Made by a program: the position numbers and the translations under genes. A model generated the notes under the pieces. It was not told where the DNA came from. It did not search any database and worked only from the letters and a program-made list of their open reading frames with translations. Source: a virus. Taken from it: a DNA stretch of 64,000 nt. Every line of letters begins with the position of its first letter. The stretch's first letter is position 1. The stretch lies in IMG/VR virus record IMGVR_UViG_3300027708_000023. One strand, given 5' to 3'. This document shows positions 13,436 to 32,413 of the stretch, piece by piece.

Positions 13436-13515
13436 GTAAGTCGTTGGTATCAAATAACTTAGAGAAATTGCGGCCGGCCCGCCGCGTCGTAAGTCCTTTG
13501 GGAATAAGGGTTTAC
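13436..13515. repeat. 80-bp bipartite dyad element, copy 1
   Basis: GTAAGTCGTT-N7-AATAACTTAG + 26 bp GC-rich + GTAAGTCCTT-N7-AAGGGTTTAC. Confidence 0.95.
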
Positions 13516-13533
13516 GTCAAGTGGTCTAGGGGT

Positions 13534-13569
13534 AAAAAAGAACCGCCACCCATTGCTGAGTGGCGGCTC
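13534..13569 (-). terminator. intrinsic terminator after DUF932 gene
   Basis: GCCGCCAC/GTGGCGGT stem followed by U-tract on the minus strand. Confidence 0.75.
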
Positions 13570-13593
13570 CCACATTACCCCCACTACGAGGTA

Positions 13594-14544
13594 TTAAAGT
13601 GCCTGAGCGAACTGCATGGCTTTTTCCAGAGCCTTGGTGTTGTCGTTCGCATTCGTTCCGAACCACAGGCTGTCGAGCCGATTGTCTTCGGTGCGACCCT
13701 TATTGTAATTCAGATACTCGTTGAAGCCGTTATAAGCGGCCCACCACGTTCCGCGAACCCCCGTCGCACTCTGCTTCGGGCCTTCGACCAGATTCAGAAT
13801 CTCGTCCATGATATTTCTGGTACGAGTCTTGATCTGATCATCCGGCGTACCGTCGATGTCGAGCATCACCTTGACATAGCGACGAACGTCGGCCTGATTG
13901 AAGTTCTTCGACGCGAGGAACTTGAACTGCTCCGCAGTCGCCTCAAACTCCATGTTGATGTTGTCCATAATGTCTCGCACGTTTTCCAGATTGGTCTTGC
14001 TGGAACGTGTGTGACGAATACGGATCAACTTGGAACCACTGCTCTTGCTATGGGCCATTGCCATAGTGTTAGCACACACAACACGGATCGGCGTATAGCC
14101 AACCCGGATAGCGGTCGTGCCATCGTGCGAGTTACTGAGAAGAATGAACTTCCCAACCTCGTCACCCTTCACGATCTCGCTATTGTCGCGGTTCAGTTGG
14201 GCCAGAACCCAAACCTTCTGACCGCTGTGGAGCGAACCGGCAGTATGCAACGCACACTCGCCAGCATCCAGAAACGGCTGGAACCAATCGAACGCCTCGC
14301 TGTTTTGCAGCGGGGTGTATCGCGGGCCGACAACGCCCAGAATACTGGAGTCTGTCTTGCGATAGGTCGCACGGGCCGGAACGGGTTCGCCGTCCACCGT
14401 GAACAAATCCTTCAGACCGACTTCCCAATCCAGACCGGCAGCGGTCATAGCTTCCGAAACCGTAGGGGCTTCGTCAAGCTGGTTCCCAAGGCCGTGCCAC
14501 GGGGTCGCACCAACAAACATCATCTGTTCAACTGCATGAGCCAT
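13594..14544 (-). CDS. DUF932 / TIGR03299-family phage-plasmid protein
   Basis: MAH...PWHGLG N-terminus, YTPLQN, NSHDG, TPIRVVCANT, GTWWAAYN motifs; own promoter and RBS. Confidence 0.9.
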   Translation of the reverse strand: MAHAVEQMMFVGATPWHGLGNQLDEAPTVSEAMTAAGLDWEVGLKDLFTVDGEPVPARATYRKTDSSILGVVGPRYTPLQNSEAFDWFQPFLDAGECALHTAGSLHSGQKVWVLAQLNRDNSEIVKGDEVGKFILLSNSHDGTTAIRVGYTPIRVVCANTMAMAHSKSSGSKLIRIRHTRSSKTNLENVRDIMDNINMEFEATAEQFKFLASKNFNQADVRRYVKVMLDIDGTPDDQIKTRTRNIMDEILNLVEGPKQSATGVRGTWWAAYNGFNEYLNYNKGRTEDNRLDSLWFGTNANDNTKALEKAMQFAQAL

Positions 14545-14587
14545 AATCATCCCTTTCGTGTTGCTGTTCAATCGTTCTTGTCCACTG

Positions 14588-14616
14588 ATTCTACACTATA
14601 TTATCGGCAGTGTCAA
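14588..14616 (-). promoter_or_regulatory. sigma70-type module promoter
   Basis: TTGACA-ctgccgataatatagtg-TAGAAT. Confidence 0.9.
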
Positions 14617-14645
14617 GCGAAAACTTTGGAAAAATTCCGCAGGTC

Positions 14646-14725
14646 GCAAGTGGTTGGTAGATAAGGACTTACGGCGACCGGGGCCGCCCCAGCTTGCCCT
14701 AAGTCTTTGGCTGGTAAGGGTTTAG
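14646..14725. repeat. 80-bp bipartite dyad element, copy 2
   Basis: Same 10-7-10/26/10-7-10 geometry. Confidence 0.95.
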
Positions 14726-15205
14726 GATTATCGTGCCAAAATGCTTCTCAAAAAGTTTAGAATCTGTAGAAGCATTGAAAGAACATTCTTCACCAAGATA
14801 GAAGTATGCTCCGATACACTTTGCTCTTGGAGTATCATCAGAAATACTACCAATAATATGTTTAAGAGTATCTCCAGAACAAATCAAATCATCCACAATA
14901 ACATATCGTGATGGAGAAACGCCTTCAAGGAAAAATTCGCTATATCGCTTTTCATCCTTACGAACAACGATAATATTCTTATTGAGAATCTCCGCAATCT
15001 GTGGCACTACCATCAAACCACTTACGCCACAACAAGCAATACTGTCAAAATCGTTCTCAATCTTACGCAGAGAACAAACGGCTTTTATAATCACACCATT
15101 CCGATATTTATGATTTAATACTCGGCTAGTATGAGCCGCTCCTTGAATGATTTTACCATCTGGTGTGCGACGAAAATCATCTAGTTCTTGCTGGAAAGCG
15201 CTCAT
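14699..15205 (-). CDS. type I phosphoribosyltransferase-fold protein
   Basis: PRPP-binding loop YVIVDDLICSGDT; upstream GVSG and VVRK motifs. Confidence 0.85.
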   Translation of the reverse strand: MSAFQQELDDFRRTPDGKIIQGAAHTSRVLNHKYRNGVIIKAVCSLRKIENDFDSIACCGVSGLMVVPQIAEILNKNIIVVRKDEKRYSEFFLEGVSPSRYVIVDDLICSGDTLKHIIGSISDDTPRAKCIGAYFYLGEECSFNASTDSKLFEKHFGTIILNPYQPKT

Positions 15206-15207
15206 AA

Positions 15208-15288
15208 AGTGTGTGGTTGGATTTGAACCAACAGCCCGTTATAAGAAAGGAATAAGAATAGGGTCTAGTCCCACCTAGAAGCACACAC
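15208..15288 (-). ncRNA. tRNA-like RNA with aberrant pyrimidine-rich anticodon arm
   Basis: Acceptor GTGTGTG/CACACAC, D-like arm TCTAG/CTAGA, T arm GTTGG-TTCAAAT-CCAAC; no 7-nt anticodon loop. Confidence 0.7.
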
Positions 15289-15293
15289 AAAGA

Positions 15294-15467
15294 TTATTCG
15301 TTTTCGTCTTCTTCAATACTGGAATAATAATTCTTACCATAAGACGGAACCTCATCATCCTCTTCTGCATCTTGCATCCAAGGTTCTTCATCCAGACCAA
15401 GATCCTCGGCATTTTCTACCAATTCATCATAGTCATAATCATAACCATCATAATCTTCATATCTCAT
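15294..15467 (-). CDS. 57-aa highly acidic protein (below ORF-track cutoff)
   Basis: MRYEDYDGYDYDYDELVENAEDLGLDEE...; GGGAG RBS; promoter at 15491-15518. Confidence 0.7.
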   Translation of the reverse strand: MRYEDYDGYDYDYDELVENAEDLGLDEEPWMQDAEEDDEVPSYGKNYYSSIEEDENE

Positions 15468-15519
15468 ATTTTACTCCCTTTCTTACCCTTATTCTACACC
15501 AACAATCGTCATTGTCAAG

Positions 15520-15592
15520 TGGGCCCTCGGGGACTCGAACCCCGAACCTAAGAGTTAAAAGCTCCTTGCTCTGCCAATTGAGCTAAAGGCCC
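15520..15592 (-). tRNA. tRNA-Lys(TTT)
   Basis: Cloverleaf, anticodon loop CTTTTAA. Confidence 0.95.
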
Positions 15593-15850
15593 GCCTTATT
15601 ATTCGGTTACGGTAATTTCCTCGTAGGAATAACTTTGGACATTTTCGGTTGTAAAATCATACAGTTTGTCGAAAACATCGGCCCAATCAAAATCCTCTTG
15701 CACGGATAGTTGAATATCGGCCAAAGTCTTACCATCCTCAGTCAAAATATCATAGATGCGAAGGTTCTTCATCATCGTTTTCCTTTCTTGTTCCAATAGT
15801 CTACCATACTCTTATCGTCCTGTCAAGCGATCTAACTTTAAAATTTCCAA

Positions 15851-15922
15851 TGACCCCACGGAGAATCGAACTCCGATCTCCACCGTGAAAGGGTGGCGTA
15901 CTAGCCGTTATACAATGGGGCC
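15851..15922 (-). tRNA. tRNA-Glu(TTC)
   Basis: Cloverleaf, anticodon loop CTTTCAC. Confidence 0.95.
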
Positions 15923-15951
15923 ATCCTCGCAACTCAACATCAGCCTCCGAA

Positions 15952-16038
15952 CGGAAGAAGTAGGATTCGAACCCACGGACCCAATTAAGGGTCTCCGGTT
16001 TAGTAAACCGGTGCATTAGACCACTCTGCCATTCTTCC
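15952..16038 (-). tRNA. tRNA-Ser(ACT), type II long variable arm
   Basis: Anticodon arm CCGGT-TTACTAA-ACCGG, long variable stem GACCC/GGGTC, G73. Confidence 0.9.
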
Positions 16039-16043
16039 TTAAG

Positions 16044-16115
16044 CTGTCCGACTAGGATTCGAACCTAGAACCAAGCGGTTAACAGCCGCCTACTCTACCG
16101 TTGAGCTATCGGACA
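16044..16115 (-). tRNA. tRNA-Asn(GTT)
   Basis: Cloverleaf, anticodon loop CTGTTAA. Confidence 0.95.
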
Positions 16116-16445
16116 TCAATTTCCAACTTCTTCATTCAATGGGTTCACCTAACGAACCTTTAATCTCTTCTTCTTTTTCAATCAATTTATTTGCATTGAT
16201 AATGCCCCACAGTCTGTGGTCAATGTCGCTTATTGTGCTCCATATTACTTTACTTCTGTCATTACATCGATCAACTTCACGATCCAGTTGTTCACTAAGA
16301 CTCCTAGTCCACATAGGGCAATATTGCATTCTGTCCATCAAGAAATATATTTGAATTTGTTGAATAATTAAAGTTATTATAATGATCGTATAAAATGAAG
16401 CTTTGATGTATTTCATTGTCATGTTTCTCTAAAAAACGAACATAA

Positions 16446-16516
16446 TTCCGGGACTAGGATTCGAACCCAGACAAAGAGAACCAAAATCTCTGGTGCTACC
16501 GTTACACTATCCCGGA
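16446..16516 (-). tRNA. tRNA-Gln(TTG)
   Basis: Cloverleaf, anticodon loop TTTTGGT, U1-A72. Confidence 0.92.
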
Positions 16517-16517
16517 G

Positions 16518-16590
16518 AGCCGATGGTCAGAATCGAACTGACGACAGGCAGTTTACAAAACTGCTACTCTACCAACTGAGTTACATCGGC
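16518..16590 (-). tRNA. tRNA-Thr(TGT)
   Basis: Cloverleaf, anticodon loop TTTGTAA. Confidence 0.95.
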
Positions 16591-17091
16591 AATCCTACTA
16601 TTATAGTCAATAGTCCCCATTCTCGCAAGCCCTGCGGTTTTCAGCGGATCGGGTTCGTGTTCGCTTGGGGCGATTGTCCATAACGGTGTGACGGTGTTCC
16701 TTGTGTCCCGTAGGAACTTGCCACTGCGGTCGTACCTTGATCTTGATATGATTGCGTCGTGGCCTCATATCGTCGTTGTTGTGGAGCGTAATCATGCCAT
16801 TGTCCATTTTCGTGTAGGTAAAAAACTTTGTCAACATTAGGGTCGTAAGCCATCAGACAGTATTGTACCGGATAAACTACTTTTGTCAAGGCCGGTTTCT
16901 GAGGCATGGGAGGGAATTTTATATCACCTTTCTGATAATCTTTTACACCATTATAGGCTAATCCCAAAACAGCAATCAGAATCCCAACCCACTGGATCAT
17001 TCTCTCACCCCTCGTTGATAGTCGTCTCGTTCTCATATATCTATTATCGACCAATCCAGAGTAGAAACTTTAGGAGATTTTTGGATTTGCT

Positions 17092-17171
17092 ATAAAGTGT
17101 TGTGGGCTAAGGACTTACGTCAAAGCCGCCCGGCCCCGCTCGCCCTAAGTGCTTATGCAGTAAGGGTTTGC
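17092..17171. repeat. 80-bp bipartite dyad element, copy 3
   Basis: Same geometry. Confidence 0.95.
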
Positions 17172-17179
17172 GGCTAGTC

Positions 17180-17410
17180 TTACTCTAAAGTCCATCCGGC
17201 ATCTTTTAGAATATGGGTAGTATGTAACACACAAGTTAATCCATCAGCATTTGTATAGTCTTTATATCCACGTTCATCAAGATAGATGTGCTCATCTAGT
17301 GTATCATTTTCATTTGTTTCCCATATAGCATCCATCGCAGCATCCCGTGGACATTTGTTGCAGGAATAAATTAGTTCTAGTGTTCCACATTTGATATAGT
17401 ATTTGCTCAT
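17180..17410 (-). CDS. hypothetical phage protein
   Basis: 76 aa, coupled to upstream ORF, stop 8 bp from element copy 3. Confidence 0.7.
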   Translation of the reverse strand: MSKYYIKCGTLELIYSCNKCPRDAAMDAIWETNENDTLDEHIYLDERGYKDYTNADGLTCVLHTTHILKDAGWTLE

Positions 17411-17988
17411 TAGTAGCCCCTCCTGAACAGTTCACATTCGGTACAGCCACAAGCTCCGTAACTATCAACATCATCATAATCAAACTTTCCATAAATATCT
17501 TCATCCCAATCAGTAAAGCTCTCAACCCCAAGGTCGATAGCAACCGCAACCCATTTCCCCTTACGTCGGATATAACCAAAATTACCTTTATGGGCATCAT
17601 TATAGTCTAACCCATATTCTTCTCTCAAATCATAAACTACTTCATCAATAGCAACCCCATTCTTACATTCACTCTGAAAACATTCACCATCACAATCTTC
17701 GTCATGGCACTCTGGCATAGGTCGAGCAACTTCGGTCAAATAACCATAAGCAGTCAACTCGCCATCATACCTACGAATCATACCAACATCCCCATATACC
17801 ATAGGGGCCAAATCAAACTGAGCCAGATGCTTTTGAACCCGATGGGCAAACTCTGCCTCTTGCTCATTCTCAAACTCTTTGAAGCCCACCCGCTTACGGT
17901 TAATCTTTTTGTCTTTGATAATATAGAAAGCATTCTTACTTCCCTCATCATCATACAATCCAACGTAGCTCATTTTTATTCCTTTCAA
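17410..17988 (-). CDS. protein-kinase-like (APH/RIO-type fold) protein
   Basis: GFK, LAPMVY, catalytic loop DAHKGN, DFG-equivalent IDLG; likely start MSYVG behind GAAAGGAA RBS. Confidence 0.7.
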   Translation of the reverse strand: MKGIKMSYVGLYDDEGSKNAFYIIKDKKINRKRVGFKEFENEQEAEFAHRVQKHLAQFDLAPMVYGDVGMIRRYDGELTAYGYLTEVARPMPECHDEDCDGECFQSECKNGVAIDEVVYDLREEYGLDYNDAHKGNFGYIRRKGKWVAVAIDLGVESFTDWDEDIYGKFDYDDVDSYGACGCTECELFRRGY

Positions 17989-18689
17989 TGGGCTGGAAAC
18001 AAGACATTAGCCAAACCACGAACACACAAGTCACATGATATACTATCTTTAGTGCCAGTGCAAGTGATTTCCGAACGACCGCGACGGATTTCGGGACATA
18101 CCACAAACTTTGTGGCATTGAGAACCACCAGCTTTGGCAGTGCTTGTCGCCATGCTTCGGCTTTTGCTTTGCTTTTAGGACGCTTCGGAGCAATCTTCAT
18201 GTCGCTGTCACACCATGCGAACAGCTTGAAACCCTGTGCCAGTGCTTCGCCCATATCATTATCATCATGCACACTAGCGTACACATTCATATACTTTTCC
18301 AGACTCACAAGCCTAGCATCGTAGATATGAGTATAGAACCACATATCGGGCAGACTATCACCATCGGCCAGAATACTCTCACAAGCCCACGTTACATTAG
18401 CAACATAGTCTAGGTCAAGTTCTCCATTGAGAAACCAGTCGCCACGTTCATGCCAGCGAATAGACTTCTCACGACGTTTTGCTTCCAGAATCATAGCACG
18501 GATTTTATTCTTTTCCGTTATGACATTAGCAAATCCGGCAGTGCGAGCATTTTTATACTGGTTTTCAGTAGCTTCGGCATAACATCCATTACCGAGATAG
18601 TCGCAATCGGGTGGGCAAGTATCGCCCACTGGACGCGAAACCACAATGCAACCCTTACCCAACTTATCATTACCGTCTGCTGTTTTCAT
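17985..18689 (-). CDS. Gp88-like phage protein
   Basis: N-terminal GNDKLG, TCPPDC....CYA, IRWHERGDW, WFYTH and C-terminal CP...C..C..C pattern. Confidence 0.7.
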   Translation of the reverse strand: MKTADGNDKLGKGCIVVSRPVGDTCPPDCDYLGNGCYAEATENQYKNARTAGFANVITEKNKIRAMILEAKRREKSIRWHERGDWFLNGELDLDYVANVTWACESILADGDSLPDMWFYTHIYDARLVSLEKYMNVYASVHDDNDMGEALAQGFKLFAWCDSDMKIAPKRPKSKAKAEAWRQALPKLVVLNATKFVVCPEIRRGRSEITCTGTKDSISCDLCVRGLANVLFPAH

Positions 18690-18710
18690 GTTCTTCTCCT
18701 GTGTCTACCG

Positions 18711-18739
18711 ATTCTACACTATAGTATCGGCAACGTCAA
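18711..18739 (-). promoter_or_regulatory. sigma70-type module promoter
   Basis: TTGACG-17bp (contains CCGATA)-TAGAAT. Confidence 0.85.
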
Positions 18740-18768
18740 GCAGAAAACTTGAAGAAATTATTATTGAC

Positions 18769-18848
18769 GCAAGTCGTTGGTAGATAAGGACTTACGACGC
18801 GGCCGGCCCGCCGAACTTGCTCTAAGTGCTTTAGCAGCAAGGGTTTAC
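18769..18848. repeat. 80-bp bipartite dyad element, copy 4
   Basis: Same geometry. Confidence 0.95.
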
Positions 18849-18854
18849 AACAAA

Positions 18855-18928
18855 CGAGAGTGACGGGACTCGAACCCGCAACCTCTAGCGTGACAAGCTA
18901 GCGATCTAACCAATTGATCTACACCCCC
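18855..18928 (-). tRNA. tRNA-Asp(GTC)
   Basis: Cloverleaf, anticodon loop TTGTCAC, G73. Confidence 0.93.
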
Positions 18929-18933
18929 AACAA

Positions 18934-19005
18934 TAGCCCCAGCAGGAATCGAACCTGCAACTAGAGATTAGAAGTCACTTATTATATCCATTTAACTATG
19001 GGGCC
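18934..19005 (-). tRNA. tRNA-Arg(TCT)
   Basis: Cloverleaf, anticodon loop CTTCTAA, one U-U mismatch in anticodon stem. Confidence 0.9.
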
Positions 19006-19071
19006 GTCAATACCGCAAGCCCCCACGGCGTCCCGTGGAGGCTCGCAGTCATTATAACTCCATAGAGTCGA

Positions 19072-19332
19072 TCACGCAACCGTTTCCGTTTCCGTCTCCT
19101 TCTCTACCTTGCCGTCATGGGCATCACCCGCAGCCTCGGCAGTCACACCAGTCACCCTAGCACGCCACACCTTATAGCCCTGCTCGCTAAAAGCCTTGAT
19201 TCCAGCAGCCTTGACATTAGCATGAACATCACCAGGAAGCTCATCATTAAGAGCCTTAGTAAGGGTAGACACCACATCGGCCGAATCAATCTCGTCGCCA
19301 ACAATATCAACAGCAAAACTAAACTTTTTCAT
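19072..19332 (-). CDS. hypothetical phage protein
   Basis: 86 aa, GGAGA RBS. Confidence 0.75.
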   Translation of the reverse strand: MKKFSFAVDIVGDEIDSADVVSTLTKALNDELPGDVHANVKAAGIKAFSEQGYKVWRARVTGVTAEAAGDAHDGKVEKETETETVA

Positions 19333-19468
19333 CTTATCTTCTCCAAAATTGTTATAGTTACCAAATCGTTCTAGTATCAGTATACGCTACTGTTACCCAC
19401 TTGTCAAGTCCGTCGTGATGGTTTCTTATGTTGTGCATCGTCGTGGGGTCTTGACTTGTGATACTCTC

Positions 19469-19497
19469 ATTCTACAGTATAGTATCGTCATTGTCAA
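19469..19497 (-). promoter_or_regulatory. sigma70-type module promoter
   Basis: TTGACA-atgacgatactatactg-TAGAAT. Confidence 0.85.
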
Positions 19498-19538
19498 GGG
19501 CGAACTTGAGCGTCGTTGAAAGATTTTTGATTTTTGTC

Positions 19539-19618
19539 CTAAGTTGTTTGGCAGCAAGGACTTACGTCAAATTCGGCCGCCCCGCCTCGCCCTAAGTTCT
19601 TCAGGGACAAGGCTTTAG
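19539..19618. repeat. 80-bp bipartite dyad element, copy 5
   Basis: Same geometry. Confidence 0.95.
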
Positions 19619-19619
19619 G

Positions 19620-20003
19620 TCAAGAGAGAAAACCCTCGCAACCCAAACCCACCAGATCACGCAGCAGTGCCTCTGCCGCTTCGGGCGTTTTCAGAGTCAT
19701 ACTCTGCTTGGTGTTAGCTGGGGCAGGATGCCATGTATCGTACTTCCAGCCACCAACCAGATAGTCAGTCCAATCTTTGGACTCTTTGAGACCCCATCCG
19801 GAGTGCAGTCGGATAGCCTTGATGCACGGGATACGGTTGTCCGTATTCATGCCACCAGTGATAGTCACCACACGACGCTGGTTCACACCCAGTGCCACTT
19901 CCAATGCACACACAATCTTGTCGAACATATCCAGACTGCAACCATTTGCAATCATGTTCAACGACTCACGCACGCTCAGTTCGATTTTGATCATAAATTC
20001 CAA
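19620..20003 (-). CDS. ribosomal protein bL12 (L7/L12) C-terminal-domain-like protein
   Basis: RIPCIKAIRLHSGWGLKESKDWTD resembles the bL12 CTD KIAVIKxVRxxTGLGLKEAKDLVE; C-terminal EAAEALLRDLVGLG. Confidence 0.75.
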   Translation of the reverse strand: MEFMIKIELSVRESLNMIANGCSLDMFDKIVCALEVALGVNQRRVVTITGGMNTDNRIPCIKAIRLHSGWGLKESKDWTDYLVGGWKYDTWHPAPANTKQSMTLKTPEAAEALLRDLVGLGCEGFLS

Positions 20004-20475
20004 AACTTTCTGTATACTTAGGGTCTATTTCGTAAATGCCGTCAAAATTTCCGTTACGTTCTTCCAGAATATGAACCTGTCGCCCATCGGTAACTAAGGT
20101 ATCATACTCACTGTTATCCCATACAAACTCACCACCATCACTCTCCCTACGCCAATGAACATCACGAATGGGATTATAATACAACTTCTCAAGATTGTCA
20201 ATAGGCAAAGAGGGATAAAAATCCTTGCGAAGCATAACCTCCTCACACTGTACCCATCCACTCACATTCTTTTTTTGTTTCTTATTGACCCATTTTGCCC
20301 TAGCTACCTTATTGACCAGCTTGCAACCACGCATCTCCAACTGGTATTCTGTAGGGTCTACATAAAATTGGTCAACCCTTTTCTTACCCTGCATAATGTT
20401 TACTTGCCACTTCCGATAATTCTTGCCATTAAGCAGATGAAATCGTACTTCGGCATGTTTTTCGACAGTTTTCAT
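19966..20475 (-). CDS. hypothetical phage protein
   Basis: 169 aa, ATGA-coupled to 20472-20714. Confidence 0.75.
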   Translation of the reverse strand: MKTVEKHAEVRFHLLNGKNYRKWQVNIMQGKKRVDQFYVDPTEYQLEMRGCKLVNKVARAKWVNKKQKKNVSGWVQCEEVMLRKDFYPSLPIDNLEKLYYNPIRDVHWRRESDGGEFVWDNSEYDTLVTDGRQVHILEERNGNFDGIYEIDPKYTESFGIYDQNRTERA

Positions 20476-20714
20476 TTGCCTCTCCCGATAACAACACAGT
20501 TGACCGGCTGATCTCCAACCATATCAACGTAGTACGCTGCGTGTCGCCCATTATACCAATAGAACTTCTCTTGTCCATCCCAGTTGTCGTTTTCAACAAG
20601 TGTGCCAGTAGAAACATCGGGATTATCGTAACCACCCTCATAGCCCGGAATCACCACCATGCTATCCTGCGGTACCATCTTCAGTTGTTCGATCAGTTCA
20701 GCAACAGTCATCAT
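20472..20714 (-). CDS. hypothetical phage protein (MTVAELIEQL...GYEGG type)
   Basis: First ORF after promoter 20736-20764, GAAAGGG RBS. Confidence 0.75.
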   Translation of the reverse strand: MMTVAELIEQLKMVPQDSMVVIPGYEGGYDNPDVSTGTLVENDNWDGQEKFYWYNGRHAAYYVDMVGDQPVNCVVIGRGK

Positions 20715-20793
20715 ATTCCCTTTCGTGTTACCACTATCTTACACTACTATTATCGACAAGTCAAGAGCGAATCTTGAAAAAATATTGCTAATC

Positions 20794-20873
20794 ATAAAGT
20801 CTTTAGAGATAAGGACTTACGTCAAACCCGGCCCCGCTGCCTTGCTCTAAGTTCTTTAGAGGCAAGGGCTTGC
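20794..20873. repeat. 80-bp bipartite dyad element, copy 6
   Basis: Same geometry. Confidence 0.95.
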
Positions 20874-21776
20874 GTCAAATCCACAGATCGGCCGCGTTCT
20901 TCACAACGGCCTTTTCTTTGACAGACCCGACATTTTTGATCACGATCTCTTTGGTTCCCTTGAACTCTACCGTACCGTTAGAGTGCATCACCAGATAGGC
21001 CTCTCTGCCGTTCTTTCCCTTGAAGAAGTACAGAAGTTCACCCTCGTCTTCAAAGTCGCTTCGTGTCCACTGTCCAGTCATTTTCGCTTTTCCTCTACAA
21101 CTTGATAGAAACGCCCGTTAACGCTAATTGTACCACCAAACACGTCCCAGGTCAACTCCTCTTTCAAGGCCCGCTTGTGAGCAGCCAGAACAGCCCTGCG
21201 ATCCTGCTTCATCTGTTCCGCTGTCGCATCTGTCGAAATGATTCTCATGACTCGATTTTCTCCAGTTCGCTAAGGTAGGCATCCTTCTCGGTTCCGTCGT
21301 CGTACAAGACCCAGCACCAGACATTGTTTATAGCAGAGTCAAGCTGAATCACGGTTCCTTCGTGTCCGACCAATCCCTGCTTCTCTCCACGCGGCTTCCA
21401 ACGAATACGATCACCAACTGAAATATTGCTCATTGCAGATTTACTCCGTACTTGTGACACTGAAACCTCTCATCCATCTTTTCCGGCTCATCGCACGGTT
21501 CGATCATAATCGAAATACCGTTTGGTGCGGTAAACACATTACGGTAATCGCTATCTTCCCAATCGGGCATATCGTTGCCGACCCCGATCTGATCCATCAC
21601 CAGTGCGTCTGCATGGAACGTGGCCAGATCAAAGCTGCGAAATGCCTTCACATGAACCACTCGGTCATGCTGAACCATCAACACCAGATACATAATCAAC
21701 CTCCTCTTGTGAGCCTTTAGTCTACCATCTATTATCGGCATCGTCAAGGGAGAATCTTGAAAAATTATTTCTAGAC

Positions 21777-21856
21777 GCAAATCCTTTAGAGGTAAGGACT
21801 TACGACAGATTCGGCCGCCCGCCCTTGAGCTAAGTCTTTTAGCAGCAAGGACTTGG
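21777..21856. repeat. 80-bp bipartite dyad element, copy 7
   Basis: Same geometry. Confidence 0.95.
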
Positions 21857-23054: not shown

Positions 23055-23134
23055 GTAAAGTTTTGTGGTATAATGAGTTAGAACAAATTCGGCGGGCCGG
23101 TTTTGACGCAAGTCCTTTGTTCACTGGAACTTAC
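23055..23134. repeat. 80-bp bipartite dyad element, copy 8
   Basis: Same geometry. Confidence 0.93.
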
Positions 23135-24208: not shown

Positions 24209-24288
24209 GTAACTCTATAGACCATAAGTACTTATGTCAAGCAGGGCCGCCCGCCCTATCCCTAAGTTGTTTAAGGATAAGGACTTAC
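24209..24288. repeat. 80-bp bipartite dyad element, copy 9
   Basis: Same geometry. Confidence 0.95.
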
Positions 24289-24737
24289 GATTAGTTGTTA
24301 CTAGCCCCAATAGACTCACGAACCCTAACCACCCCATCCCTCTTGGCAATCTCAAGAGCACCACAGATAAAAGCCTGAAACTTATCCAGTTCTGCGGTCA
24401 TAAGCTCAGGATTATAATCAATAGCCTGTATAATCATCTTCATAGCAAAACTAGCCACACGACCAGCAATCAAACCTTTTTCTTCACTTGTCAGCATAAT
24501 TTTCTCCTTACTCCAAGTATACTCTATTAAAGACTCTTTGTCAACCCCTGACTATGTGCTGACTATGCCCACCCAGCCCAACCCCGTAGGGTTAGGAGGG
24601 ACAAACACGAGAGATTCTTTCAAGCATCAAATTCTTCCCGTATAGCTTTTCAGCCATAGACAACGCATGATAAGAACTGTACGCATGAACATAGCCTACA
24701 ATCTTAGTACCCTTCATGACCATGTATGTATCGGTAA

Positions 24738-25028
24738 TCATACTTCTTCCTCCTCTGAGCCAGCAAACATTTCTTCCCAATCTTGAGCATCAAGCCCTGT
24801 TTTCAGAATCTCACGATCATCAGCACCAAGATACGGGAAGCAATTCTGAATCAAACCACCATTCAGCCACTCATTGGCATCACTGAGTTTGGTTGAGATA
24901 CAGAACGGACGACCACCAACACTGTAGCCGCTGAACCTAACAATATCACCTTCCACAGTGCGAGTCACGACATCTCTCAGAGCATACGGCTTATCTATAA
25001 ACATCTTTTTCTCCTTTTGATTCCCCAT
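24738..25028 (-). CDS. hypothetical phage protein
   Basis: LIQNCFPYL...REIL.TG segment; probable start MFIDK behind AAGGAG. Confidence 0.7.
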   Translation of the reverse strand: MGNQKEKKMFIDKPYALRDVVTRTVEGDIVRFSGYSVGGRPFCISTKLSDANEWLNGGLIQNCFPYLGADDREILKTGLDAQDWEEMFAGSEEEEV

Positions 25029-25087
25029 ATTCTACACTACTATTATCGGCCTGTCAAGAGGAAAAACTTGAGCAATAAAAGATTGTC

Positions 25088-25167
25088 GTAAAGTATTGTG
25101 GCATAAAGACTTACGACGCGCCGGGCGGGCCGACCTCGCCCTAAGTCCTTTGGTGTCAAAGGGTTAG
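25088..25167. repeat. 80-bp bipartite dyad element, copy 10
   Basis: Same geometry. Confidence 0.95.
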
Positions 25168-25202
25168 GGGTTGGTCAGTTAGTAGGCAGAGACTGCTAGT
25201 TT

Positions 25203-25646
25203 TTAGAACAGGTTAGCAAACCCGCTCTTGAACAAAGCACCAGCCAGAAGAGGCTTTCGGCACTTCGTCACTCGCTCTGCGTAGAAATTACGCACCTTAC
25301 CATCCGCAGTTCGACACGTTACCAGATTGGTAGTACGCACAAACTCAGGATCATTGATACGATATCGACTCTTTCGATTCAGTCTCTTAATCTGGTCAGC
25401 AGTCAGCGTCTGCTTGCCGATCACCTTAGCCAGAAAACGCTCATGCGTTCCATGCAAAGGCTGCTCGTAAACAAAGTTGAAAACCTGACCCTCTTGAGCA
25501 TTCGCCAAGCTAGCCTTCGATCCACCATAGACCGAATAGAAGACGAAACCCACAACAGCAGCGGCAACAGCCGCAAGAATCGAACCAAACAGAATCACAT
25601 CACTCATAGAAACCCTTTCAAATTGAAAACCGATCACAACATCCAT
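25203..25646 (-). CDS. membrane-anchored protein, possible WYL/SH3-like domain
   Basis: N-terminal TM helix; C-terminal VRNFYAERV resembles the WYL RxFxxxRI motif (weak). Confidence 0.5.
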   Translation of the reverse strand: MDVVIGFQFERVSMSDVILFGSILAAVAAAVVGFVFYSVYGGSKASLANAQEGQVFNFVYEQPLHGTHERFLAKVIGKQTLTADQIKRLNRKSRYRINDPEFVRTTNLVTCRTADGKVRNFYAERVTKCRKPLLAGALFKSGFANLF

Positions 25647-25677
25647 GCCACAAGTCTACACTAATTATCGTCGTTTG

Positions 25678-25941
25678 TCAAGCACAAACTTTAGAAAAAC
25701 TTTCTGCCCAGTATTCTTCCATTTCTGCCATATTGATACCACTATCATTCCAAGCCACACAATCGGGTGTTTCGAATCGAATAGGGTCTTTGGTAAAAAT
25801 CTCACGAATCAAAATCTTGAAATGATCGTAAGAGGTACACTGCTTTGCCAGACTATACATATTTTCATCATTACTGATCCACAGACAAACATTCCATGTC
25901 TGGTAGTTTTGATAGCCGTTGTAACTTCCATCGGGACTCAT
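25678..25941 (-). CDS. hypothetical phage protein (YNG..NY.TW...LW..ND type)
   Basis: 87 aa, first ORF after promoter 25970-25998. Confidence 0.75.
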   Translation of the reverse strand: MSPDGSYNGYQNYQTWNVCLWISNDENMYSLAKQCTSYDHFKILIREIFTKDPIRFETPDCVAWNDSGINMAEMEEYWAESFSKVCA

Positions 25942-26036
25942 GTTTCACTCTCTCTTTCTCGTATACGTCATTCTACCATATATTATCGGCAAAATCAAGG
26001 GGCAAACTTGAATCTTACGGAATTGTAAGGATTCTC

Positions 26037-26116
26037 GTAAAGTGTTGCAGAGTAAGGACTTACGTCGAACGCGGCCCGCCCCGTCGGCCCTAAGTGCTTG
26101 AACACAAAGGGTTTAC
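26037..26116. repeat. 80-bp bipartite dyad element, copy 11
   Basis: Same geometry. Confidence 0.95.
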
Positions 26117-26132
26117 GACGAGACATTATTTT

Positions 26133-26363
26133 TTACTCAAAATCAACAAAGATGATTTGAGCATAACCGCGAGGCTTAACTGTATAGCCGTCGCCATAGT
26201 CATAGGTCTCGGCCTTGACCGCTGTCATACCGGCCAGAGCCTTAGCTTTACGAACAACGCTACGCTGGCTAGCATTCTTCTTAGGGATGAACTCATAACG
26301 ATTCACCCAACCATAGTTAGCTTCACCACCAAAAGTATCCGTATGGGTAACAACGCACTTCAT
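26133..26363 (-). CDS. hypothetical phage protein (TDTFGGEANY.WV type)
   Basis: 76 aa, AAGGA RBS. Confidence 0.75.
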   Translation of the reverse strand: MKCVVTHTDTFGGEANYGWVNRYEFIPKKNASQRSVVRKAKALAGMTAVKAETYDYGDGYTVKPRGYAQIIFVDFE

Positions 26364-26764
26364 TTAACAAGTTCCTTTGCTTTCATGGTTTCAAGATACA
26401 ACTGTTCCAACATCTTCACACGACTTACTGCACGATTCGTCTCACGATTCATGAGTATAACAGCTTTTTCGTGTGCTGTCAATACCTTCTTTTTGGTTTT
26501 CATTTTTGATACTCCTAGCCAAACATCTCATACTCTTCATCGGTCAATGCTACCTCATCGGGACGATAGCAGTTATTGCCATACAAATCGCGATTCTTAG
26601 GACGCTTTTCCCATTCATCCATGAATCGGTTGTATTCTTCAAGACGCTTTTCTTCTTCACTTTTCATTCTTCGCTCTCTCTTTCTCTACTCTATTATCGA
26701 CAAGTATAGCATAGAAACTTTAGGTGTCAAGCGGGTAGTTTCCTTGCAATACTGTAAGGTTATC

Positions 26765-26844
26765 GTAAAGCATTGCAACATAAAGACTTATGACAAATGC
26801 GGCCCGCCCCGCCAGCCCTAAGTGCTTATGCACAAAGGGTTTAG
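26765..26844. repeat. 80-bp bipartite dyad element, copy 12
   Basis: Same geometry. Confidence 0.95.
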
Positions 26845-26853
26845 GGGTAGTGC

Positions 26854-27252
26854 TTAGAATTTTCCTCCAAAATCTGGACTAATTCCAAGTTGCTGCTGAA
26901 CATCCTCGTCGTCCAGAATATCTTGGTCGATCATAAAATCCATGTCATCAAAGAACACTTCGATTTCTGGTTTTCCGTCATATGCGAGAATAGCAGCAAA
27001 ATCATAGATCATAAAGTAGGCCGTAGCTTGTACCCATGATTCTACAAGCCCAGAATGTAACTCAATAGTATCTCTATTAAGATAAACATACTCTATTGCA
27101 GAACACTTGGTACTCTCATTCATTTCATCCCACACGGGAATTTCTTGATTATGCTTATTCAGTTCTTCATCCAGCACACCATCTTCCCGCCACTGTACAT
27201 AATTTTCGTATGTGGCCTCGATAATACCCGTCGCAATCTTTCGATACTGCAT
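26854..27252 (-). CDS. acidic hypothetical protein
   Basis: 132 aa, GAAAGGA RBS. Confidence 0.75.
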   Translation of the reverse strand: MQYRKIATGIIEATYENYVQWREDGVLDEELNKHNQEIPVWDEMNESTKCSAIEYVYLNRDTIELHSGLVESWVQATAYFMIYDFAAILAYDGKPEIEVFFDDMDFMIDQDILDDEDVQQQLGISPDFGGKF

Positions 27253-27269
27253 TATACATTTCCTTTCAA

Positions 27270-27503
27270 TTAGTCGTTATATGGCCCATCTTCATTGTAA
27301 TCCACAAATCCCACAGCCTCATCGGCATGGAAATCTTCCTGATAGTCTAAATCTTCCCCATAGCAACCGTAATCCTCATCGGTTCCCCATCCAGCGGAAG
27401 CCAACGCAGACTCAGCATCACCATCCATACTATCATCAAACGAATCATTCTCAAATTCTCCAACGGTATCATCTTCCTCGAAATCGTCGTATTCGTAGCT
27501 CAT
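27270..27503 (-). CDS. extremely acidic small protein
   Basis: 77 aa with DGDAESALASAGWGTDEDYG; no Lys or Arg. Confidence 0.75.
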   Translation of the reverse strand: MSYEYDDFEEDDTVGEFENDSFDDSMDGDAESALASAGWGTDEDYGCYGEDLDYQEDFHADEAVGFVDYNEDGPYND

Positions 27504-27852
27504 GATCAGTCCCTCACGATGGTAGTAATGTAAAACAAACCGATATAACCCACAACAAAAGCAATTGCACTAAGCATTAGTATACTCCTCGGGAACAAAT
27601 TCGTCAACAGCACCCACAACGTCGGCCCAATCCCAAAAGTTGACTTCCACACTGGGATCGTCAATTGGCTCGACCATCGGCTCGACAATACCCGCTTCGG
27701 CCATATCGTTCAGAATATCGTTGATCTCGTCGAAGTTCAGCATGATTCTGGTTCCTGTGGTTTCCGTTCGTGATGCTGGTATTCTACACTTATTATCGAC
27801 CCATTGCAAGCCCTAGCGTAAAAGTTTTTCCTTGCAATCTCGTAAGGTTGTT

Positions 27853-27932
27853 GTAAAGTGTTGCAGCATAAGCACTTACGCTTCGCGGGGCGGGCCGCGC
27901 TCGACGTAAGTCCTTACAGATGAAGGAGATAC
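27853..27932. repeat. 80-bp bipartite dyad element, copy 13
   Basis: Same geometry. Confidence 0.93.
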
Positions 27933-29229
27933 GTCAAGCCACATCCTAGAATGAAACACAACCCAAATAGAATATAATCACTGATTTTCATCATTTTCCT
28001 CCATATACATGATATTTGACATACTAGCATACAGAATAATACCAACAATATACCCAAAAGCCACACTAATAAAATCAAATTGATACATCCCTGTATCTCC
28101 ATTTTGGTTTAAGTGGTCAATCCCCGTATCCTACCCAGAAATCATCACCCTCATCATTCTTCATAAGAGTATAACCCCTAGACTTCATATTCTCATACTC
28201 GTTGATTCTCTGCCAGACTTCACAGAAAGTTTCCATAACTTTAAGGAAAGCCCCCATAACCCACACAAAAGGATATTCAATCATTCTCATAGTCAAGCCT
28301 CCACAGTGTTGGCAACATGGGTCATATTCTCACACTGGTCAAGATAGCACGAACGATATTCGGTCAGACCAATTTTCACAATCATCATCTTACCCTTGGG
28401 CTTGTCAAGAACCCTACGAACTTCACCACGGTAATTCTCACCCTTATAATCAAACTCGACCCAATCATACCGCTTAATATAGTCCATCATACATTCCTCT
28501 TGGTTACTGGTCATCTTCTCTATACCTATTATCGACATTCTACACTGCAAAACTTTAGTTGTCAACCTTACAAGACCCACAGGTTCCGCTGACTATGCTG
28601 ACTATATCCAAACCACCCAAACCCGTAGGGTTAGCTGAGACTCTCAATTTCCTTTATTTCTGCTCAGAGCAGCATGGCACACTATCTGATCAAGCGTATA
28701 CCATTCACCATCACCGTATCGGCCAGAAAGCCGAATCTTCAGATTCTTTCCGATAATTTGCTGGACAATACCATACCCGTCAACCACCTGAACCACATCG
28801 CCAACCATAATCTTTTGCATCTTTTTCCTCTTTTGAGTATTCTATCGAACTTTTCTGCCGTCGTCAACCCCTCTTATGCGGGGGTAGGTTGCGACCGATA
28901 ATACTTCGCCCACAGTTCATTCATCACGAACTGGACAACACGATCATGAGTACCACGACAAACGTAGTATCCCATGTGAATGTCGAACAGAGCAAACGTT
29001 CCATCCTCTTTCGGATGAAACGTAAACCCACACTTGTAGGCATACCCATTGATCTTACCCTTGACGGTCGAAACTTTCGGAGGCTTTCTCATTTTCATTT
29101 TCTCTCTTTCTTGTCTTACCATTATACATCTATTATCGTCATTTGTCAATAGGGTAGACCAGAAAAAGTTTCCTTGCAATGCTGTAAGGTATTTCTAACA
29201 TGATTTGGTACAGCATTTGCTATGGTGTC

Positions 29230-29309
29230 GTAAGTCGTTGTGGAATAAGCACTTACGTCAAGCGGGGCCGGCCCGCCTTGCCCTAAGTCCTTTAGCAGCA
29301 AGGCTTTAC
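29230..29309. repeat. 80-bp bipartite dyad element, copy 14
   Basis: Same geometry. Confidence 0.95.
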
Positions 29310-29447
29310 GTCAAGTTTTTCTTTTCCTGTATATCCGTTCAGTACCCACCCAAACGGGGAGGTAGAGCTTAGGGTACAGCTGTACATACTTACTCTTTAC
29401 ATAACGCTCAGCCTCTAGTGTAACGTCGTATACTAGTGTACAGTCGT

Positions 29448-29876
29448 TCATTCTTCCCCCTTGAAGCTGAACGGGCTGATTTCCAGATGAGCAACCGCCC
29501 CATACTGCTTGGTTAGTTCCTCGATACGCTCACGCGAACCCGGCTTGCCAACCGGAACGATCATGGTATCCTGTCCCCCCACATAGCGGGGGTCGGCCTT
29601 TTCCTTGCGAGTCTTGCCGATATTCTTCAAGGCAGTACGATTGAACTTGAGAACCTTTTCGGTCACAACGTAACGCTTGTGGTCAGTCACACCGTGAACG
29701 TAGTCAACGTCGATGATAAACTGCTCATCGGCTACTTCGTGGCGAACGGGAATCGCGATACCCTTGAAGATCGCACGGGCTTGACGCTTGGCATTTTCGA
29801 TGATGGGGAACTTGGTTTTCATTGTCTTTTCTCTCTTAGGGTCTATCGTTCTCTTGTGTGTGGATTCTATCAACAA
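29448..29876 (-). CDS. hypothetical phage protein
   Basis: Probable start MKTKF behind GAGAGAAA; GC-richer codon usage. Confidence 0.7.
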   Translation of the reverse strand: MLIESTHKRTIDPKREKTMKTKFPIIENAKRQARAIFKGIAIPVRHEVADEQFIIDVDYVHGVTDHKRYVVTEKVLKFNRTALKNIGKTRKEKADPRYVGGQDTMIVPVGKPGSRERIEELTKQYGAVAHLEISPFSFKGEE

Positions 29877-30501
29877 TTCTTTTGCCTATCAACCCCCACT
29901 ATGGGTGGGTCGATAAGTCCAGGGGTGTCCGTAGGCATCCACTGCGGGCGAAAGCTCATGGTCTGCACAGTCATGGAGATTTCCACCTTCTGTACGCACT
30001 ACCCACACATTGCCCTCATCATAGTAGTAGGAAACAATCTTTCCAACAATCTGTTTCTCGAATCCCTTGAGCATCACACTATCACCAATTTCGTACATTC
30101 TTTTCTCTCTTTCTTGTGTGTTCATTATACCAAAATGATTTTATGTTGTCAACCTTACAATGTCGTAAGGCTCACCATCCATTTTGACGATAGGTTTCGT
30201 TCAATGATTCGTTTTCACGACGTTGCCTACTATTCATAGGTTCATCACCAACTTCCCAATTATCCTTTAACGCATCATATCCATCATCAGAATTCTTACG
30301 AACATCATCGAAATCATCATAATCATACCGTGTGTCAGAATAACTCATTTTCTTTCCTCTTTCTTTTTCTTTCTTCTCTATCTATTATACGCTATGAATA
30401 GGAAAAGGTTCAAGAGAAATCCGGATATTTTTATGTCAAGAGAATTTGACAAAACTTTTCGTCATTTTCTTTCTCATTGGCATACCATTTGCTAAGTCGT
30501 C

Positions 30502-30581
30502 GTAAAGTCTTACTGGGTAAGCACTTACGTCGCGCCCGGCCCGCCCGCCTTGCCCTAAGTCGTTTAGGGACAAGGACTTAC
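30502..30581. repeat. 80-bp bipartite dyad element, copy 15
   Basis: Same geometry. Confidence 0.95.
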
Positions 30582-30819
30582 GTTCAGTGTTGCTTATTTA
30601 TCCTGCGATTCGCAAAAACCAGCAATGCCAAGCAACCAATGCCTAGTGTACAGCTGAGTACTGAACATCCGAACAGTGTAGCATAGAATTCAGCATATCC
30701 TACAGTAGTAGGCTCACAGTTAGGATGTCCCAAGCCGATAGCCTGCATTACGACAACAAGCAAACAAATCGAAACGCTCCACAACATCGTAAAGGTAAAA
30801 ACGTTCATTTTTTTCTTTC

Positions 30820-31152
30820 TTAGTAAATAAGGTTCATATCGGCCACAACCATACCATCTTCATACTCTAGGCCACATTCCAGATACCATTGTCCCTTGCG
30901 TTGATACACACGCACGGGCGAATACTGATTGATTCTATCCTTAGTGGTACTCGTATGCCAACCCCCACTATTGAGGGTAGCACTATTGTCGGGATGAATC
31001 TTTACCACATAGGTACTATGCAGCATGATCCCTACGCTACCATCAGGAAGAATTTCCGCATAGGTATTGTTGCCAACCTTGCGAGTATCCTTATTAGTCT
31101 TACCACGAACCATCTTCACTGCTTCACTGTGTGTCATGCGAGAACCTTTCAA
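30820..31152 (-). CDS. hypothetical phage protein (NNT...L.SGGW.T.TTK.R.N type)
   Basis: 110 aa ORF with GAAAGG RBS. Confidence 0.75.
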   Translation of the reverse strand: MKGSRMTHSEAVKMVRGKTNKDTRKVGNNTYAEILPDGSVGIMLHSTYVVKIHPDNSATLNSGGWHTSTTKDRINQYSPVRVYQRKGQWYLECGLEYEDGMVVADMNLIY

Positions 31153-31379
31153 TAGTTGTAGTCGTCGTAGTCGTGGAGCATGGAATGGATAGCATTACCC
31201 ACCTCATGCACGGTATAGGTAATGAAAGCACAACCAGCAATCAAGGCAAACAGTTGAACATAGTCGATAATCGTCAGCATTAGGATCTCTCTTTCTTGTG
31301 TTGTTATTCTACATCTATTATCGACCAATGTCAACCCCTAGCAGCAAGAAAAACTTCCTTACAATACCGTAAGCTTTCT

Positions 31380-31459
31380 CTAAGTCTATATGGAATAAGC
31401 ACTTACATAGAGTTCGGCCCGCCACGCTCGCCCTAAGTCCTTATAGGGCAAGGCTTTGC
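31380..31459. repeat. 80-bp bipartite dyad element, copy 16
   Basis: Same geometry. Confidence 0.95.
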
Positions 31460-31460
31460 G

Positions 31461-31676
31461 TCAAGAGGCGTGAATGAACACTTGTTCACTTCTCAGTCTG
31501 CTATTGATAGTTACGATCCAGTTTTTTCCGCTACCATCCTCACGCATGATACCGTTGATAAGGCCCACATGAGCGTTACCCTTGGGGTCGAGCACGCAGT
31601 GATACTTGCCAGCTCGCATAGCAGAGAAAATCTTGTCAAGGTTATTCGTTACCGGCTTATAGGCTGTTGCAAACAT
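31461..31676 (-). CDS. hypothetical phage protein (REDGSG..W type)
   Basis: 71 aa, AAGGA RBS, promoter 31704-31733. Confidence 0.7.
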   Translation of the reverse strand: MFATAYKPVTNNLDKIFSAMRAGKYHCVLDPKGNAHVGLINGIMREDGSGKNWIVTINSRLRSEQVFIHAS

Positions 31677-31990
31677 GTTTTTCCTTTTCTTTCTTGTTTT
31701 TCTATTATACAGTATAGACTAGGTGGTTGTCAATACCTTAGAAAATATTTTTTAGTGAGAGGAAGCCGGAAGCCTTTTGATGATTCGGCTACCATAGGCA
31801 GTTTCATCGCCCTCCCATTTGCTCCAACCGGCTTCATACGCTTCGTTTTCAGTATTGAACGGGCCGATGAAGTCGATTTCACAATCCCAAGCGTCGAAAA
31901 CCTGAATGAAATAAGTCATTTTCTTTTCCTTTATCCTATCGTTCTCTTGTGTCTCTATTATAGCTTATCGGCTAGACGGCTGTCAATACC

Positions 31991-32233
31991 TTAGTAGTAA
32001 AGAAAATCGCTAAGAATGTTTCCGTCACGATCAACATTAATTCCCTCGCCCTCATCGCCGCAGGGAAAGAAATCTCCGATGGAAGCGGTCCCGTCGCTCA
32101 GTTCGTAGTAGTGGAAAGCCTCGATGAGCAACTCACCGCCAATACGAGCAATTCCAACCAAGGTTTCGGGGCTGGTCGAATCAGCACCATAGAGGAGGTT
32201 GTTCAGTTCGTCGCGATTGTTGATGGTGATCAT
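31991..32233 (-). CDS. small acidic hypothetical protein
   Basis: 80 aa, GAGGA RBS, promoter 32262-32289. Confidence 0.7.
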   Translation of the reverse strand: MITINNRDELNNLLYGADSTSPETLVGIARIGGELLIEAFHYYELSDGTASIGDFFPCGDEGEGINVDRDGNILSDFLYY

Positions 32234-32333
32234 TTTCTTGTCCTCTTGTTCTTATATCGACATTATACAGAGTATTCTGTAGTTTGCAAGTGGAAAGTTT
32301 CCTTACATTTCCGTAAGGTTCGCGGTTTTCGTT

Positions 32334-32413
32334 CTAAACCCTTGGGACCAAAAGACTTACATCAAACGCGGCCCGCAAAATGAGACATAAGTCCTTATCT
32401 GCCATATACTTGG
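32334..32413. repeat. 80-bp bipartite dyad element, copy 17 (most degenerate)
   Basis: CTAAACCCTT-N7-AAAGACTTAC + 26 + ATAAGTCCTT-N7-ATATACTTGG. Confidence 0.85.

Follow-up and report, generated by a model that had tools for sequence, protein, structure and literature searches.

What keeps an intergenic element at one exact length in copy after copy, when the genes around it have diverged? This question is raised by a 64,000-nucleotide stretch of viral DNA (IMG/VR virus record IMGVR_UViG_3300027708_000023; the whole stretch is referred to as the window in the following), in which a first-pass annotation had noticed 17 copies of an 80-bp element between positions 13,436 and 32,413. Each copy is built from two dyads, that is, from two pairs of inverted 10-bp arms around a 7-bp spacer, which are joined by a 26-bp linker (10-7-10/26/10-7-10). 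In our reading, which draws on sequence analysis, the element is probably an operator for a regulator that would act as a dimer of dimers or as a tetramer on early promoters.

Invariant geometry of the double dyad

The 17 full copies align with one another without gaps, and a sequence-only model built from them and run on the window recovers exactly these copies, at the starts given in the first-pass annotation. The same model also yields three partial single-dyad matches (12119-12150, 13181-13211 and 13331-13366), where solo dyads had been reported at 12124, 13184 and 13336. Reduced to the bare four-arm skeleton with at most two mismatches, the element is matched 33 times over both strands, compared with 0.01 matches expected from shuffled sequences. 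All 34 spacers in the window measure 7 bp and all 17 linkers 26 bp, as had been counted by hand. The paired arms are imperfect complements, with Watson-Crick pairs at 5-8 of 10 positions.

The same geometry is found far beyond the window. Relatives were collected from IMG/VR with a pattern that matches both inner arms exactly, which gave at least 120 loci (about 1 Mb) on about 100 contigs; all family counts given here are among the matches listed. In these loci of uncultured phage contigs, a hidden Markov model (HMM) of the window copies detects at least 548 elements, and 520 of its 527 full-length matches are free of net indels. The constancy is also seen when no geometry is presupposed: where half-sites were located by regular expression and gaps of 0-20 were allowed, the gap was 7 bp in 486 of 495 pairs and any other gap occurred in at most two pairs, and of 429 adjacent pairs of dyad centres located with an HMM of the single dyad, 423 were spaced by 53 bp and the remainder by 50, 52 (three times), 54 and 55 bp. 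Spacing thus does not vary freely among homologs, and the earlier suggestion that length is under selection, and not the sequence of linker and spacer, is supported by the invariant 7 and 26 bp. In a divergent relative (L040; IMGVR_UViG_3300042887_002870), the dyad centres are 52 and 55 bp apart, not 53.

A consensus anatomy was derived from 460 unique copies. Each arm reaches about 15 bp through a flanking TTGNC or GNCAA, so that the half-site reads TTGNC-GTAAGTCCTT, and the whole element, 90 bp with its extended arms, is pseudo-two-fold symmetric. The near-invariant bases (TAA-N4-TT-N7-AA-N4-TTA) are spaced 22 and 9 bp apart in a contact-like pattern, with information contents of 0-0.3 bits at the spacer positions. 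At the exact centre lies a core of about 83% G+C with the consensus palindrome GGCCGGCC, which is found in both orientations. This core, rather than GGCC, is the conserved feature of the linker: a GGCC in every linker had been claimed, which is true of all 17 in the window, but only of 77% of the 460 unique family members. Restriction-site avoidance was considered as a reason for GGCC and rejected, as GGCC is no rarer than expected in the rest of the sequence, with 110 occurrences against an expected 82-97. Conservation is highest in the inner arms and lowest in the promoter-proximal outer arm, and the unit is therefore polar.

In complete relatives, all copies are confined to one contiguous stretch, with 15-25 copies over 17-22 kb in genomes of 200-229 kb. 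For instance, a 200-kb complete record carries 15 copies inside 57.7-74.3 kb, and a 229-kb complete record about 25 copies over about 22 kb spanning the contig ends. The element is kept even where the flanking cassettes have no detectable nucleotide similarity to the window (e.g. L019, L091). A geometry that stays exact in several hundred copies, while the surrounding genes diverged beyond recognition, is rare for a non-coding phage element. No bona fide copy was found on the bacterial chromosomes of 185,579 representative genomes (one per species); the only copies were on short or phage-like contigs of lake metagenome-assembled genomes (MAGs), whose taxonomic assignments are mutually inconsistent. 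The sole chromosomal match (Melioribacteraceae, L121) was discarded: it is an A+T-rich repeat unrelated to the element and not recognised by the model. Likewise, the phage collection held no close cultured relatives, only tRNA and distant terminase or GlmS matches, and a literature search with the arm sequence returned only unrelated primers.

Promoters in helical register with the element

The first-pass annotation described the element without a downstream promoter and thereby missed a tight coupling. Of 495 elements, 368 (74%) have on their a1 side (a1, a2, b1 and b2 being the four arms) a sigma70-type promoter that reads away from them, compared with 31 that have one on the other side. In the window, 16 of the 17 copies, all but the one at 17092, have a TTGACA-like/TAnAAT promoter at a distance of 20-90 nt. 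Read in the direction of transcription, the element starts at or within a few nucleotides of the preceding stop codon or tRNA 3' end and is followed by an A/T-rich tract and then the promoter. The element edge itself supplies stops in three frames (TGA at -4, TAA at +1 and TAG at +24).

The distance between the element and the -35 hexamer is not arbitrary: it clusters at 19-20, 29-30, 40-41, about 51 and about 63 nt. After related spacers had been collapsed to 113 independent clusters, a Rayleigh test peaked at a period of 10.5-11 bp (R = 0.53, p ~1e-14); the distance classes themselves recur every 10.7 bp or so. The sequences between element and promoter differ among the distance classes, which are therefore not copies of each other. 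With the -35 hexamer set to start at -35, the centre of the proximal dyad falls at about -67, -78, -88, -99 or -111; another 53 bp upstream comes the distal dyad.

The promoters beside full elements are near-consensus, with 5.7 of 6 and 5.0 of 6 hexamer matches, and the 25 nt upstream of element-linked promoters are 67% A+T. A CGATA(A) motif is present in the spacer of 80% of element-linked promoters, compared with 21% of other promoter-like sites. Element-linked promoters thus are a distinct class. In some of them (e.g. 14588-14630, 18711-18753), a TAAAG(TTT) lies about 9 nt upstream of TTGACA and GCCGATAA within the 17-bp spacer, which resembles sigma28/FliA promoters; this TAAAG...GCCGATAA arrangement occurs in about 40% of the class, and the composite regular expression is about 12 times above background. 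At 17040-17074, the sigma28-like motif set alone is intact.

The solo dyads, too, are tied to promoters. At 12 or more loci, one lies over the weak -35 of an extended -10 promoter, where its proximal arm ends in CTTGC and supplies the -35; these dyads are centred at about -45, in phase with the series -67, -78, -88, -99. At six loci, a solo dyad covers about +1 to +37, directly after the -10 hexamer. Both positions, over the -35 and over the transcription start, are classical operator positions.

The elements and solo dyads of the window are as follows (no strand is assigned to them; the strand of adjoining features is given in brackets):

12119-12150: solo dyad; proximal arm gives the -35-like TTGCGT of the extended -10 promoter TGGTATACT (minus strand)
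13181-13211: solo dyad; overlaps the -35 (TTGCAA) of a promoter ending TATACT (minus strand)
13331-13366: solo dyad; spans about +1 to +37, immediately after the -10 of promoter 13401-13373
13436-13515: element 1; promoter 13401-13373 (-)
14646-14725: element 2; promoter 14616-14588 (-)
17092-17171: element 3; sigma70 hexamers degenerate, only sigma28-like TAAAGTTT...GTCGATAA at about 17040-17074 (-)
18769-18848: element 4; adjoins the 3' end of tRNA-Asp (18854-18929, -); promoter 18739-18711 (-)
19539-19618: element 5; promoter 19497-19469 (-)
20794-20873: element 6; promoter at about 20764-20736 (-)
21777-21856: element 7; promoter at about 21747-21719 (-)
23055-23134: element 8, the one with the most degenerate arms; promoter 23024-22996 (-)
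24209-24288: element 9; promoter 24169-24141 (-)
25088-25167: element 10, G+C core inverted; promoter 25057-25029 (-)
26037-26116: element 11; promoter 25998-25970 (-)
26765-26844: element 12; stop codon of the upstream open reading frame (ORF) 9 nt ahead; promoter 26730-26703 (-)
27853-27932: element 13, G+C core inverted; promoter 27809-27781 (-)
29230-29309: element 14; promoter 29149-29121 (-)
30502-30581: element 15; promoter 30413-30384 (-)
31380-31459: element 16; promoter 31334-31306 (-)
32334-32413: element 17; downstream of glmS (32527-34338, -); promoter 32289-32262 (-)

The window belongs to a large phage genome. From about 34.8 kb onwards, its plus strand encodes terminase, portal, head and tail proteins; GlmS, many small ORFs and nine tRNAs are encoded on the minus strand, at positions below 34.7 kb. 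The minus strand also bears all of the near-consensus sigma70-type promoters between 13 and 33 kb, which number about 40. The element-bearing part (12000-33000) has a G+C content of 0.42-0.48, compared with 0.33-0.40 (about 0.35) in the rest of the window; as the elements make up only about 8% of this G+C-rich region, the cassette genes themselves must differ in composition. From strand layout, gene content, promoters and G+C content, we infer that the stretch at 13-33 kb is the early region of the genome.

A proposed double operator and its alternatives

Inverted arms may reflect either the two-fold symmetry of a bound protein or a folded strand. For all four candidate helices (a1:a2, b1:b2, a2:b1 and a1:b2), Watson-Crick pairing at variable positions does not exceed the prediction from column composition, and the strongest mutual-information pairs are all neighbouring positions. 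Single dyads fold at just -2.4 to -4.2 kcal/mol and the linker no better than shuffles; the whole element reaches -26 kcal/mol (shuffles, -20) and the inner a2:b1 hairpin -14 (shuffles, -10.5). No Rfam family matches the element. The absence of covariation, the weak folding of the dyads and the lack of an Rfam match together argue for a protein site on duplex DNA. Hairpins of RNA or single-stranded DNA, be it two separate ones, the inner a2:b1 hairpin or a full attC-like structure, were discarded on the absent covariation and weak folding; the earlier claim that the four arms can fold as one attC-like hairpin is not supported, given that they do not co-vary. An intrinsic terminator in the G+C core was likewise rejected, as the linker folds like shuffles and only the copy at 13436 scores as terminator-like.

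The element thus has what is expected of an operator, namely dyad half-sites at fixed spacing without covariation, and promoter positions on one helical face. We envisage four half-sites, TTGNC-GTAAGTCCTT, that make up two 15-7-15 dyads; the centres of these, 53 bp or five turns apart, would flank a rigid G+C-rich core, so that the predicted dimer of dimers or tetramer could occupy the element along one face of the helix. The double dyad would then supply the upstream portion of a composite intergenic module, which is about 150 bp long and runs from the preceding stop codon through the double dyad, the A/T-rich tract, TAAAG, TTGACA, the GCCGATAA spacer motif and TAnAAT to the ribosome-binding site and start codon. 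The bound protein would act on RNA polymerase at the adjoining early promoter in a manner that depends on helical phase, and since it would do so at each such promoter, we propose that 15-25 early cassettes are controlled together. Among the options of the first-pass annotation, an enhancer for an activator or nucleoid protein, occupied by paired dimers or a tetramer on one face, comes closest to this picture, in view of the five-turn spacing, the missing covariation and the phasing of the promoters. As to the sign of regulation, we lean towards shut-off or repression, possibly combined with a block to read-through from the upstream cassette, because the promoters are already near-consensus and the solo dyads cover the -35 or the transcription start.

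Several regulators offer partial precedents. Multi-operator phage regulons include the C1 operators of P1 and the conserved inverted repeats of phiC31. At CRP class I and class II sites, a regulator bound upstream touches RNA polymerase in a manner dependent on the face of the helix. The same is described for protein p4 of phage phi29 (PMC2731898 and its reference 17). These sites share with the element a dyad upstream of the promoter, positions one turn apart with one overlapping the -35, and a capacity to activate or repress; they differ from it in that the element has two dyads per unit, a conserved G+C core and an unrelated sequence. By its logic, the element would thus seem best described as a double operator akin to multi-operator regulons and to CRP and p4 sites, and by its architecture as analogous to the promoter-early stem-loops (PeSLs) discussed below, without being a member of any of these groups.

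Some observations weigh against a double operator. The family sample is biased by its seed, which demanded intact inner arms. No DNA-binding domain was detected with Pfam in 30 ORFs of the window, among them the best-conserved genes of the cassettes and those beside the promoters of the solo dyads. A phage-encoded HU/IHF protein, considered as the binder because the site measures 37 bp and has TT/AA steps at a 9-bp interval, was dropped because PF00216 is absent from four relatives, and an HTH_3 regulator (PF01381) because there was only one sub-threshold match, in one of the four; it is possible that the binder has a novel fold or is a host factor. About 23 strong promoters in the same region of the window have no element, which is therefore not needed for promoter activity, and it is likewise missing at the promoters upstream of glmS, with which the region begins. 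The phasing could stem from intrinsic curvature of the A-tract spacer instead of a contact between protein and polymerase. Finally, the element always follows a gene, which fits equally well with a role at the end of a transcription unit, as an insulator or roadblock.

Such a role can be formulated as an alternative in its own right, in which a protein-mediated insulator ends each unit without controlling the next promoter, either as a tetramer roadblock in the manner of stoperators or as a supercoiling barrier between closely spaced units transcribed in one direction, in the manner of bacterial interspersed mosaic elements (BIMEs) and repetitive extragenic palindromes (REPs). The position of the element at the upstream stop codon or tRNA 3' end would be explained, as would the lack of an upstream element in the first unit of the region and the scarcity of coding-strand terminator-like matches, of which there are only about 10 in 20 kb, one of them at an element. 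Phage repressors that halt elongation at many dispersed sites are known, with cluster A mycobacteriophage stoperators being described as 13-bp asymmetric monomer sites spread genome-wide (PMC9283540). On that description, tens of protein-binding sites (putative ones in the case of the element) dispersed in short intergenic regions and coordinating many units are common to both, but the element is a 90-bp four-arm symmetric unit restricted to one region of 17-22 kb, and its genomes are apparently lytic jumbo phages, with no integrase found in the four relatives scanned (see below). Moreover, an insulator has no need for helical register with the next -35 hexamer, and the solo dyads lie on promoters, not at gene ends. 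Insulation as the sole function therefore appears fairly unlikely, although the roles of insulator and promoter regulator are not mutually exclusive.

Another possibility is that the module is kept mainly for homologous-recombination shuffling of ORFan cassettes between co-infecting phages, as has been proposed for PeSLs of T4-type phages. PeSLs carry a stable polyG/polyC stem-loop that was shown to terminate transcription, and they are tied to indels and replacements of the ORFans they flank and to the formation of mini-circles (PMC2839356, PMC4122927). The architecture is similar: in both, an intergenic module of about 100-150 bp recurs in a plastic region populated by small ORFans and combines a consensus sigma70 early promoter, preceded by an A/T-rich tract, with a palindromic, G+C-rich part after the previous gene, and cassettes are gained and lost between relatives. 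Indeed, whole cassettes are gained or lost, split by extra elements, or replaced by other segments; cassette C06, for instance, is missing in three relatives (L072, L034, L073), and additional elements divide C02 and C03. In L072 the C06 junction falls within an element, another replacement stops exactly at a promoter, and in the distant relatives L042, L069 and L020 blocks are permuted; the three-frame stops at the element edge would suit such a junction as well. Most relatives, however, are colinear with the window cassette by cassette, and homology breakpoints fall inside the element in only 77 of 451 cases, compared with 10% expected; this is an enrichment of about 1.7-fold, and the majority lie elsewhere. 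The breakpoint check proposed in the first-pass annotation hence does not support a cassette array. Recombination requires just similarity, not an invariant 7/26-bp geometry, conserved TAA/TT bases or phasing to the -35. The element also differs from PeSLs in this geometry and phasing, and in arms that, judged in silico, form only weak folds, show no covariation and have no U-tract. We thus regard shuffling as its main purpose as unlikely. With no recombinase found in the four relatives scanned, mostly colinear cassettes and weak breakpoint enrichment, the data fit occasional homologous exchange at repeated modules and not an integron-like, site-specific system. The element would be a second, independent case, beside the PeSLs, of regulatory cassettes that delimit exchangeable ORFan modules.

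The double operator could also be part of something broader, which is conceivable if somewhat doubtful: a family of phage global regulators invisible to Pfam, whose tetramer would act on the 15-25 early cassettes of uncultured freshwater jumbo phages and would combine phase-dependent output with insulation against read-through and a portable junction for cassette exchange. If true, this would be a regulatory-plus-evolutionary device, one step past PeSLs. The element marks a candidate protein-DNA system that would govern the whole set of early genes for host takeover in a widespread clade of lake phages with genomes of 200 kb, and may find use as a 92-bp bait for the regulator, as a marker of early regions and cassettes in metagenomic contigs, or as a source of strong, modular, phase-tuned promoters.

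A signal at the RNA level, read in read-through mRNA as an intrinsic terminator, as an RNase III site in the style of T7 early genes or as a put-like antiterminator, is very unlikely. It would accord with the intergenic position after each cistron and with the somewhat better folding of the whole element and its inner hairpin relative to shuffles. Yet covariation is absent from every helix, mismatches are frequent at stem positions 5-8, there is no U-tract or Rfam match, the single dyads fold as weakly as described, and neither the promoter phasing nor the solo dyads over the -35 would be explained.

This leaves the option that the first-pass annotation had listed first, in which the elements are attC-, dif- or pdif-like sites of an integron-like array, served by a host Xer-type or an unrecognised recombinase. 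attC arrays lie next to an IntI-type tyrosine recombinase, act as a folded strand of variable sequence and length, and hold promoterless cassettes on a common promoter, whereas dif and pdif are 28-bp sites with an 11-6-11 layout for the host XerC/D. The likeness consists of four inverted arms around short spacers that recur between cassette-like units; but here the layout is 10(15)-7-10(15) in pairs, the length is fixed and the arm bases are conserved, no structure-preserving covariation is seen, each cassette has one or more promoters of its own, and the order is largely fixed, with breakpoints also away from the elements. Scans of window ORFs with Pfam or PHROGs revealed no recombinase, in line with what had been noted before, and neither Phage_integrase (PF00589) nor Resolvase was found in two complete and two near-complete relatives (G001-G004). 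Together with the 185,579 bacterial genomes that lack a bona fide copy beyond phage-like MAG contigs, this makes site-specific recombination hardly credible.

Further features of the array

Some features lie near the elements without being part of them. A mini-palindrome, CCTTAC-N6-GTAAGG/GCAAGG, occurs between some elements and their promoters (26739-26768, 27827-27856, 29169-29198, 31354-31383 and 32298-32327); its core GTAAG/CTTAC is that of the arms, but in the opposite relative orientation. Sigma54-like TGGCAT-N5-TTGCT motifs (about 30480-30500, and 29205-29228) point into the element from the plus strand and are antisense to the genes; they are found in about 5-9% of the family, in a subclass with an element-to-promoter distance of 88. 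Farther away, an ORF of 233 aa at 39744-40445 (+) has a weak match to Sigma70 region 2 (E = 5e-5), which is consistent with a phage-encoded sigma factor.

Eight tRNA genes lie inside the cassette array on the coding strand, at 15519-16590 and 18854-19005, and tRNA-Asp ends 5 nt ahead of the element at 18769. In one relative (L001), a tRNA-Glu/Ser/Asn block is swapped for a segment with an extra element. Finally, a short conserved motif, GTC.C..CTAA(C/T)CC-loop-GG(G/A)TT ... ATAGTCAGC, occurs in three copies on the minus strand (13225-13300, 24537-24612 and 28576-28651). It shows one compensatory change in its 5-bp hairpin and a weak consensus fold (-4.3 kcal/mol), and may represent a small RNA or serve as a signal for processing.

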